From Planctomycetota bacterium (lineage in GTDB: Bacteria; Planctomycetota; UBA8108; SXIK01): DNA of 64,000 nucleotides. The position numbers and the translations under genes were made by a program. Positions 42,014-44,182 of this stretch are shown piece after piece. The stretch lies in contig OZ244999.1 of the NCBI GenBank assembly GCA_965223265.1, positions 5,024,001-5,088,000 on the forward strand, read 5' to 3'. Below the pieces are notes generated by a model, which saw nothing but the letters and a program-made list of their open reading frames with translations, did not search any database and was not told the origin of the DNA. Each line of letters opens with the position of its first letter. The first letter of the stretch is position 1.

Positions 42014-43036
42014 TCACTTTGCCCCGGTGGCCTCGTCCTGACGAACCCCTTGCAGCGCGACGGTAGCGTGCTGTGTGAACTCAGCATAGCGCCCGCCAAG
42101 GTAGCTCAACTTGCCTTTGACGTCGATGACTGCCCAGTGCGGCGTGCGCGGAATCGCGTAGGCGCTCGCGATGTCGGAGTCGAAACCTTCGGCGGCGTGA
42201 AACTGCGGCCAGCGAACCGCCCAGTCCGCAACACCCGTCTCAAAGGTTTCCGCCGATCGATCGAGATTCACCGCGAGAACGACGATGCGGCCGCGCAGGT
42301 GGGGATACTCTTCCATAGTGCGAACCCGGCTGTCGGCGAGATCTTGGGCATTTGTTTTTTGCTGCTCATTCGCGGCGCGCCAAAAGCAGAGCAACACGAC
42401 GTTTCCTCGGAGCTCGGCGACGGAGTAACGCTTCGATTTGCGGTCCAGGTCGAAGGTGAGGTTGAATTCCGGCGCCTGCTGGTCACCTCGCGCGAGTTCG
42501 AGATAGCGAAAGTCCCGCGCGGCACGCTGCGACCATTCGCTCTGGGGATACGCGGTCGTCAATTGCTGCCAGTAGTCATACGCGCCGCGAAGCTCTCTGC
42601 CGGATCGCCGCGAGATCCGCGCGTAGTGGAGCCCGCGCAGGTACTGCTCCAGCCCGAGCACAAAGAGCGCCCGACTGCGCTGCTCGTCCGCTGGCGCGGC
42701 GACTGCGATCTCTTCGTAGAGGGCCTTCGAGCGCGCCCACTTGCCCGTGAGGCGGTGGAGCTCCGCCATCAACTCCCGCGCTTCGGAGGTAACCCCCGCA
42801 AGCTCAGGATGGCCGGCGCAGCGGAGGACGAACTCCTCCAAGTCCGCCGCCACACGGGCAGCGTTGAGTCGCACCGCGTATTCATCCGGGTAGCGTTCAC
42901 GCAGAGATTGGCGCAGCCGAGACCATTCCTCGGCAGTCGGTTTGGCGGCGGTGGAAGCGTTGTCGCCCGCTATCGCTGGCGCGAAGAGAAAAAGCAGACA
43001 AACAGTAGCCTGGAGGAAGAAACAACAGGTTCTCAC
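42014..43036 (-). CDS. Exported TPR + TlpA/thioredoxin-like protein lacking CxxC
   Basis: GTG start with GAGG RBS, signal peptide, YPQSEW TPR-like segment, APEF...LRGNVVLLCFW, VNLD and YAIPRTPHWAVID. Confidence 0.75.
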   Translation of the reverse strand: MRTCCFFLQATVCLLFLFAPAIAGDNASTAAKPTAEEWSRLRQSLRERYPDEYAVRLNAARVAADLEEFVLRCAGHPELAGVTSEARELMAELHRLTGKWARSKALYEEIAVAAPADEQRSRALFVLGLEQYLRGLHYARISRRSGRELRGAYDYWQQLTTAYPQSEWSQRAARDFRYLELARGDQQAPEFNLTFDLDRKSKRYSVAELRGNVVLLCFWRAANEQQKTNAQDLADSRVRTMEEYPHLRGRIVVLAVNLDRSAETFETGVADWAVRWPQFHAAEGFDSDIASAYAIPRTPHWAVIDVKGKLSYLGGRYAEFTQHATVALQGVRQDEATGAK

Positions 43037-43117
43037 TTTAACCTCATAGACGTGGGTCGGCTTGACTTCCGGCACCAAAAAAAATGCAATTTTTCCCTTG
43101 ACCTGAAACGAAAAGAC

Positions 43118-43145
43118 TTGACACTCGTCCTTCGTGGCATACAAT
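43118..43145 (+). promoter_or_regulatory. Near-consensus sigma70 promoter
   Basis: TTGACA-16 bp-TACAAT with an AT-rich upstream region, pointing into a region with no convincing ORF. Confidence 0.7.
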
Positions 43146-43149
43146 TTTT

Positions 43150-43874
43150 GAGCGAGAACGTTTGATTTGCCACGTGGAAAAAAGACCGTGGGTTCACAGG
43201 TGGTTGTTCTCGGTGGTCCTCGGCCGTAGTGACGGTCGAAGCCCAACCGGGCCGCTTGAGACTCGCCGCTGAGAGAGCAGCTCGAACGAAACGCTCGAAC
43301 AATCATGCTCGACCGAACGTAAGAGACGGCCGCACGAAAGAAAACGATCCGAGCGGATCAATGATGCGCGGACCAACAGTGCGCAGATCATTCACGCGCA
43401 GATTATTCACGCGCAGATCATTGATCTGCAGAGTAACAGTGACGCGCAGATCATTGATCTGCAGAGTAACAGTGCAGAGCCGGCTCCTCATGTCGCCGAC
43501 ATGGAGCTCAGACTCGGGACAGCCCAAACACCCAAGAAAGAACTAGCAAGCATTAGAAGCAGCTGTAGATCGATCATCTCCGATCGGTCACGCGAAGCCC
43601 TCCGCACCTGGGACGCGGCTGAGCGACGCGCCGAGATCGCAAACACGAGTCTAACAAGCGCAGCGAGCTGACGCAAGTTATCGAACCGCCGGACTGAACG
43701 CCACCGAGTTGTTCACGAACAACTCCCGGCGCTCGAGTCTACGAGAGACGGACAAAACAGAATAGAAAAGCCGAGGTTGTCCACCACCACGTAAAATCGA
43801 GGGATCACTCCACCAACCACCAGTTCCTCGGTTCCCTGGGCTTTTCTATCTTTGTCTCTTAGCTCGCCTCGCTC
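43150..43874 (+). ncRNA. Candidate large structured non-coding RNA (~720 nt)
   Basis: Strong promoter, no convincing ORF, 5'/3' end complementarity and several nested long-range stems. Confidence 0.5.
43381..43474. repeat. Tandem repeat: 2 x 15 bp plus 2 x ~33 bp with palindromic core
   Basis: GCGCAGATYATTCAC x2, then GCGCAGATCATTGATCTGCAGAGTAACAGTG x2. Confidence 0.9.
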
Positions 43875-43891
43875 TGTCCCCTAGCCCAGGC

Positions 43892-44182
43892 CTAGTCCTC
43901 ACGGGCGCCGGCGAGAGGATTGCGCAAGAAACGTCGCCAACACGCCGGACAAAGGTCAAACGCGAACGTCCGGTGAACGTCGTCTTGAGCCTCCGTTGCG
44001 TCTTGTCGCTCAAGCGCCTCGATCGTCGCCTTCATCTCCGCTTTGAGATCCCGGGCGAGCGAGTCCGTAGAGATCTCCAGCACGTCGTAGGCGGCGAACC
44101 CTTCCACCTTCAGGACGTATCGAACGTCGGAATCGAGAAGGAGATTGTCGTTGCAAGAGTCGCAAACTAAGCCGTCCACCAT
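43892..44182 (-). CDS. Small hypothetical protein with two CxxC motifs (putative Zn-binding)
   Basis: CDSC and CPAC; RBS AAGGAGG before ATG 44182. Confidence 0.75.
   Translation of the reverse strand: MVDGLVCDSCNDNLLLDSDVRYVLKVEGFAAYDVLEISTDSLARDLKAEMKATIEALERQDATEAQDDVHRTFAFDLCPACWRRFLRNPLAGARED

Follow-up and report, generated by a model that had tools for sequence, protein, structure and literature searches.

What is transcribed from the 855-bp gap that separates a thioredoxin-like/TPR gene (42014–43036, minus strand) from the gene of a 96-amino-acid CxxC protein (43892–44182, minus strand) in a 64 000-nt stretch of a planctomycete genome (contig OZ244999.1, positions 5 024 001–5 088 000; hereafter the window)? 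The gap contains no convincing open reading frame (ORF), as a first-pass annotation of the window had remarked, and its plus strand carries a sigma-70-type promoter, TTGACA-16-TACAAT, at 43118–43145, with a predicted transcription start near 43152. That annotation took the transcript of ~720 nt to be one large structured RNA of the OLE/ROOL/GOLLD size class, folded by nested helices between its 5′ and 3′ parts. We arrive at a different answer: with a probability of roughly 0.6, the locus is a small non-coding RNA gene in which the promoter and a long leader precede a functional 3′ hairpin that would act by base pairing in trans. The hairpin belongs to a previously undescribed RNA family found in planctomycete bacteria.

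Conservation in the gap is confined to its downstream end. A blastn search with the gap against 40 relatives gave matches in 12, all within window positions ~43760–43856 at 81–90% identity, and found no leader conservation outside query positions 721–817 of 861. An alignment of 33 distinct sequences, the window and 32 other full-length copies (six truncated copies were left out), defines two helices, P1 of 12 bp and P2 of 9 bp. P1 pairs GAAAAGCCGAGG (43765–43776) with CCUGGGCUUUUC (43835–43846), the latter in a 15-nt inverted repeat, and P2 pairs AUCGAGGGA (43796–43804) with UUCCUCGGU (43824–43832). Across the 33 sequences 97.4% of the 693 cells are paired, and compensatory changes are present at 15 of the 21 pairs (changes on both sides at 9/12 pairs of P1 and 6/9 pairs of P2); none of 500 shuffles reached the pairing of the hairpin and slid controls gave 59% at most. 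The helix sequences are quite different in loci L034, L055 and L037 and in the L032 group. The transcribed strand is fixed as the plus strand by 40 G-U cells versus two A-C cells, and the segment 43763–43852 folds with a z-score of −4.4 on the plus strand and −1.5 on the minus strand.

The single-stranded parts are conserved in sequence. The unpaired junction segment UUGUCCACCACCACGUAAA (43777–43795; seed 1) is invariant or nearly so, and the terminal loop UCACUCCACCAACCACCAG (43805–43823; seed 2) contains the invariant ACUCCACCAACCAC; in full, the invariant single-stranded segments read GGUUGU(CC)ACCACCACGUAAAA at 43775–43796 and ACUCCACCAACCAC at 43807–43820. A U-rich tail, UAUCUUUGUCUCUUAGCU (43847–43864), is kept in the alignment and is probably the 3′ end or a terminator tract. 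Helices P1 and P2 with compensatory changes, together with invariant unpaired segments, characterize what we call the CCACC clade, and by comparison with its other members the window has both. It scores 108.6 bits against the covariance model R1, although it is among the sequences from which R1 was built, and the hairpin is present as a single copy in the genome. No Rfam family is reached at gathering score anywhere in the 64-kb window; over 42900–44100, Rfam 15 at E ≤ 10 gives seven sub-threshold hits, none of them over 43760–43856, the best being to microRNA models on palindromic repeats (E = 0.17). We therefore regard 43765–43846 with its U-rich tail, on the evidence of covariation, as a genuine RNA gene whose product is a conserved hairpin of ~85 nt, and the proposal of an uncharacterized plus-strand non-coding RNA without a known family is upheld to this extent.

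An element of this shape just upstream of a convergent gene might be a cis element, serving as a bidirectional terminator or 3′-end stabilizer for the leader transcript and for the convergent operon of the CxxC protein, with no function in trans. P1 does have an A-tract upstream and a U-tract downstream, the terminator scan marks 43827–43840 (followed by CTTTTCTATC), and in L010, L030, L038 and L044 the convergent frame enters the 3′ strand of the hairpin, so that its terminal KKSQGD is encoded antisense to the 3′ strand of the RNA. A terminator, however, needs neither two invariant single strands of 14–19 nt nor a conserved junction, and the G-U bias indicates selection on one strand only. 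Moreover, a canonical plus-strand terminator follows immediately after the element in genus g5, L034 and L055, which in g5 is separate from the element itself, and a strong promoter of its own is kept at most of the homologous loci (see below). We consider a purely cis-acting hairpin highly unlikely.

The hairpin is one branch of a larger family. A scan for the exact pattern in 185 579 species, each represented by one genome, returned 13 stretches, whose titles all name Planctomycetota or Planctomycetia or read uncultured, and the same kind of scan in metagenomes returned 32, of which 28 are members; the remaining four are chance matches, L028 and L033 failing the model and L040 and L050 sharing the core of L033. 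The covariance model of the clade finds a match in 13 of 59 genomes of the class, this genome counted (3/3 in family f1, 9/14 in family f2 and none in the remaining 41), and gives weaker matches in 13 of 150 other Planctomycetota genomes. A rebuilt model (R2) matches 15 of those 150, with up to four copies per genome. These distant members share P1, the junction GGUUGUG...CACGUAAAAC...GUUCCCUUGG and P2 with the window, which ties the window to the wider family; they have a long terminal loop rich in C and U (CUCC, CCUCC, UCCCC), which resembles the anti-Shine–Dalgarno sequence. Between GGUU and GUAAAA they carry a third hairpin, P1a, the stem of which reaches 3 bp or more in 22 of 24 members and varies in sequence. 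The family can therefore be described as a three-way junction (P1, P1a and P2). The window clade has no P1a stem of 3 bp or more, only a G-C and a U-A pair closing the 8-nt loop CCACCACC, and is on this comparison a variant in which P1a has turned into an open C/A-rich loop.

Rfam searches of 13 homologous loci returned only tRNAs and one sub-threshold hit overlapping a tRNA match. No description of the family was found in Rfam 15 or in the full-text literature searched, where a single candidate motif with a link to Planctomycetes came up, Rhodopirellula-1. Compared here by its table description, it might formally be the same RNA; the table lists it as probably cis-regulatory, as present in Proteobacteria too and without an Rfam accession (Weinberg et al., 2010; PMC2864571). 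Three metagenome contigs with members have features of their own. L034 and L055 are A+T-rich and contain full-scoring members (104 and 90 bits) with a TTGACA-17 promoter, the −10 box of which ends ~35 nt upstream of the element, and a canonical terminator. L037 has a tRNA-like 3′ part (GGTTCGAGTCC...CCA) ~10 nt downstream of the RNA.

The promoter at 43118–43145, which lies 619 nt from P1 when measured from the −10 box, was present as annotated and has 11 of 12 matches. The 9.18-Mb genome, both strands taken together, has just 39 sites that match this well (11 of 12 or more), corresponding to 0.0015 expected per 700 nt of single strand; the promoter is beyond chance and real-looking. Its assignment to the hairpin was examined at 35 unique homologous loci with at least 200 nt of upstream sequence. 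Duplicates, the four chance matches and four truncated copies were set aside, as were L029 and L046, whose upstream sequence falls short of 200 nt. A same-strand sigma-70-like site, mostly TTGACA-16-TAnnAT with 10–11 of 12 matches, is found within 700 nt upstream at 30 of the 35, compared with 5/35 on the opposite strand upstream, 0/35 on the same strand downstream and 1/35 on the opposite strand downstream. The consensus promoter thus very probably belongs to the RNA gene. Its distance from P1 ranges from 35 to 623 nt among these loci, with values of 531 nt for the nearest genus, ~255 nt for g5 and ~50 nt for the L032 group. A terminator scan of the window found no plus-strand terminator-like site between promoter and hairpin, and since promoters are also kept upstream on the same strand, a primary transcript of ~700 nt is plausible. 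Promoter and probable terminator are independent of the flanking genes, one of which is divergent from and the other convergent with the RNA.

The predicted leader of this transcript (43152–43764) bears no sign of being part of the conserved RNA. Aligned with the leaders of G001, G002 and G003, which represent three other genera of the same family, it shows no similarity (mean column identity 49%), and tblastn of 18 leader peptides against 114 loci gave no hits, leaving no conserved ORF. Comparison with relatives, proposed with the annotation as a check, succeeds for ~43760–43856, where the hairpin covaries, and fails for the leader. The whole transcript of ~720 nt could nevertheless be a single large RNA held together by helices between its ends, and several observations seem at first to favor this. 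All the complementary words named by the annotation exist: GAGCGAG at 43150–43156 with CTCGCTC at 43868–43874, GGTGGTTG at 43199–43206 with CAACCACC at 43814–43821, GGTGG at 43212–43216 with CCACC at 43781–43785, CCTCGGC at 43218–43224 with GCCGAGG at 43770–43776, and the AGACTCG and CGAGTCT words, besides a local hairpin at 43706–43725. The minimum free energy fold of 43150–43874 joins both ends, with z-scores of −4.5 on the plus strand and −3.6 on the minus strand (20 shuffles each). Long-range 7-mer pairs number 11 versus 4.0 ± 2.4 in dinucleotide shuffles and the nested chain has a length of 4 versus 1.6 ± 0.7, and in genus g5 the leaders contain a second invariant block of ~65 nt.

Most of this does not withstand closer comparison. 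Although the nesting exceeds that of shuffled sequence, as much is found in 3–12% of 1500 random 725-nt segments from the same genome, and we do not find it convincing as a departure from chance. The low folding z-score of the region is local in origin, arising from the palindromic repeats (43346–43480, −5.2) and the 3′ hairpin, whereas two other leader stretches have ordinary values (−1.2 and −1.3). Three of the six proposed helices, GGTGGTTG/CAACCACC, GGTGG/CCACC and CCTCGGC/GCCGAGG, draw on bases of the invariant loops and of the P1 5′ strand, and hence cannot coexist with the covarying hairpin of P1 and P2. All three originate in one GGTGG-rich segment, GGTGGTTGTTCTCGGTGGTCCTCGGC (43199–43224, plus strand), which is complementary to the loops and the P1 5′ strand of the small RNA, and the energy of the duplex between this segment and the RNA does not stand out from the genomic background, of which a fraction of 0.05 to 0.57 does at least as well. 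A large structured RNA would be conserved and covary over the greater part of its extent, and this was not found; only the last ~95 nt are conserved, the leaders are unalignable within the same family and vary from 35 to 620 nt, and Rfam offers no match. The large-RNA reading is thus largely refuted and barely credible, and what stands of it is the promoter and a plausible length for the plus-strand transcript, not the folding as one structured RNA. When a small conserved hairpin lies far behind a near-consensus promoter, the arrangement can invite such a call.

For the small-RNA reading we propose the following mechanism. The promoter would start a plus-strand transcript near 43152, which would cross ~610 nt of unconserved leader and end in the two-helix hairpin (43765–43846) and its U-rich tail, the hairpin being the functional 3′ module. 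It may either be cut from the long precursor or work as the 3′ end of that precursor. P1 and P2 hold two invariant C/A-rich single strands, UUGUCCACCACCACGUAAA and ACUCCACCAACCACCAG, and these exposed C-rich segments could pair in trans with G-rich sites (GGUGG/GGAG) in the leaders of mRNAs. Pairing would proceed without Hfq, ProQ and CsrA: no homologues of Hfq, ProQ/FinO or CsrA were found in the single-contig genome, which has a marker completeness of 91.65%. We infer a trans-acting base-pairing RNA from the exposed invariant C-rich segments, the gene's own promoter, the U-rich tail and the presence of paralogues in some genomes.

A genome-wide scan for exact complements of the seeds yielded one outstanding site, in the leader of dnaA. 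Seed 1 has an 18-nt perfect complement ~65 nt upstream of the start of DnaA homology, which on extension matches at 20 of 21 positions (duplex energy −31.2 kcal/mol), and seed 2 has a 10-nt complement at −11, with more GGUGGAG words nearby. Seed complements of at least 8 nt occur between −100 and +10 of dnaA in four of 12 relatives (G001, G002, G003 and G017), three of which have two sites each; with a background probability of 0.041 this corresponds to a binomial P of 0.001, uncorrected for relatedness. With this genome counted, a seed complement at dnaA is present in 5 of 13 genomes of the order. A promoter scan found no promoter upstream of dnaA.

Several points weigh against a small RNA with its own promoter and against dnaA as its target. 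No promoter was recognized near the hairpin in this genome, so that promoter and hairpin are linked by comparison only; a leader of 610 nt is long for a small-RNA gene; and the transcript ends and any processing are predictions. The family is patchy in the phylum, being present in ~10% of the sampled genomes, although search filters may miss members. With regard to dnaA, the 18-mer occurs outside the RNA gene in none of 25 relatives, the six g5 genomes tested have the RNA but at dnaA lack any complement of 8 nt or more, and windows complementing both seeds at 9 nt or more number five in the whole genome besides the gene itself, with ~5 expected. In addition, UUGUCCAC resembles the DnaA-box consensus of high-G+C bacteria, and the GTCCAC words upstream of dnaA could thus be protein-binding sites instead of targets of the RNA. 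In view of these four points the dnaA leader is a tentative target, which we judge to be rather less probable than not.

A cluster of DnaA boxes was considered as an explanation of the dnaA match; a genome scan found no cluster of DnaA-box-like words near dnaA. The scan did detect an unrelated and unusually dense palindrome array outside the window, with ~23 copies of TGTTCCACGTGGAACA spaced 35–90 nt apart within 1.1 kb (8 050 081–8 051 200 of the genome). The TGTTCCACGTGGAACA palindrome resembles the parS centromere consensus.

The same invariant nucleotides could instead be read by a protein. The hairpin might be mainly protein-binding, either as a scaffold or decoy, for example for the 96-amino-acid protein, or by imitating the 3′ tail of 16S rRNA to bind a factor of the ribosome or of translation. 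Throughout the phylum-wide family the junction nucleotides do not vary, which is more than a seed requires, the genome lacks recognizable Hfq, ProQ and CsrA, and the loop GGGAUCACUCCACC resembles the 16S 3′ end GGAUCACCUCCUU, as the loop start GGGAUCACUCC resembles GGAUCACCUCC. The 96-amino-acid CxxC...CPxCW protein (43892–44182, minus strand) is the usual neighbor, with a homologue convergent just downstream of the RNA at 22 of 39 unique loci, and has invariant CDxC...CxxC, VRY and AAYD motifs. It has no match in Pfam or NCBIfam and its homologues are all hypothetical; its AlphaFold model is of moderate quality (predicted local distance difference test score 72), and a Foldseek search of the PDB gave nothing better than E = 1.2, so the model has no informative fold match. 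Moreover, in genus g5 and the distant members the RNA does not have this protein as a neighbor, binding is a conjecture, and exposed C-rich loops are typical of pairing seeds. The 96-amino-acid protein is a possible partner of the RNA; a mainly protein-binding role for the hairpin appears unlikely.

The leaders of genus g5 offer a more elaborate version of the small-RNA reading. Their invariant block of ~65 nt (GCGGGCUCUCGCGGAGCAAAAAGGUGGACCGC...; L004:1240–1626, and likewise in L005, L006, L008, L013 and L042) is predicted to form a hairpin with GGUGGA in its loop, complementary to UCCACC of the small-RNA loop, and such leaders may consequently be constrained within a lineage. Terminal-loop complements of at least 7 nt lie within 250 nt upstream of the RNA at 8 of 37 loci, as opposed to 3, 3 and 2 of 37 in control regions; this enrichment of anti-seeds is suggestive, being weak and not significant. 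The primary transcript could then be a pro-small RNA, in which a fast-evolving lineage-specific leader carries GGUGG anti-seeds (43199–43224 here and the GGUGGA hairpin loop in g5) that would keep the CCACC seeds of the 3′ hairpin covered as long as the leader is neither removed nor unfolded. Once free, the RNA would pair with the dnaA leader and tune the initiation of chromosome replication with no help from Hfq, ProQ or CsrA, and the conserved junction would be a docking site for a chaperone, possibly the neighboring zinc-ribbon-like protein of 96 amino acids. We regard this combination as a long shot.

The leader has some further features. Approximately 15 nt downstream of the predicted start lies a palindrome, TTTGCCACGTGGAAAA (43166–43181), which matches the TGTTCCACGTGGAACA palindrome at 13 of 16 positions. 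Tandem repeats at 43349–43474, made up of 15-nt units and of two identical copies of a 33-nt unit, with the palindrome GCAGATCATTGATCTGC inside, are unique in the genome and may represent an array of protein-binding sites or a duplication that arose recently within the leader. Minus-strand terminator-like sites are found in the gap at 43360–43345, 43312–43295 and 43199–43186; if the convergent operon stops at these sites, its 3′ untranslated region would be antisense to the small RNA.

To our knowledge, almost no regulatory RNAs have been characterized in Planctomycetota. The present family is supported by covariation, has a clear promoter, strand and seed regions, and is spread over several lineages of the phylum. 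With the dnaA leader it also provides a specific candidate target that is open to testing, in a genome that lacks the usual RNA chaperones. In comparison with known RNAs, it is like OLE, ROOL, GOLLD and raiA only in having no ORF and a primary transcript predicted at ~700 nt, and differs from them in matching no model, in conservation and covariation that are limited to the 3′ ~90 nt and in its leader, which varies from 35 to 620 nt among relatives. EcpR1 of Sinorhizobium, which has been reported to pair with the dnaA mRNA, is similar in that pairing with the dnaA leader or start region is predicted here; its sequence and phylum are unrelated, and the dnaA link here is computational and extends to 5 of 13 genomes of the order. 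Yfr1 is a cyanobacterial small RNA of less than 100 nt with an ultraconserved unpaired C-rich motif that starts with ACUCC and is located between helices. The present RNA is also below 100 nt and has such a motif, whereas its architecture and flanking sequences are different and it has no Rfam match. RsaE and RoxS are small RNAs of Firmicutes with C-rich seeds. They belong to a different phylum from the RNA described here, which has no Rfam match, CCACC-type instead of CCCC seeds, a leader of up to 620 nt and a two-helix hairpin derived from a three-way junction; like them, however, it is predicted to be a short RNA that ends in a hairpin and U tail, would act without Hfq, and exposes C-rich loop segments expected to pair with G-rich ribosome-binding regions.

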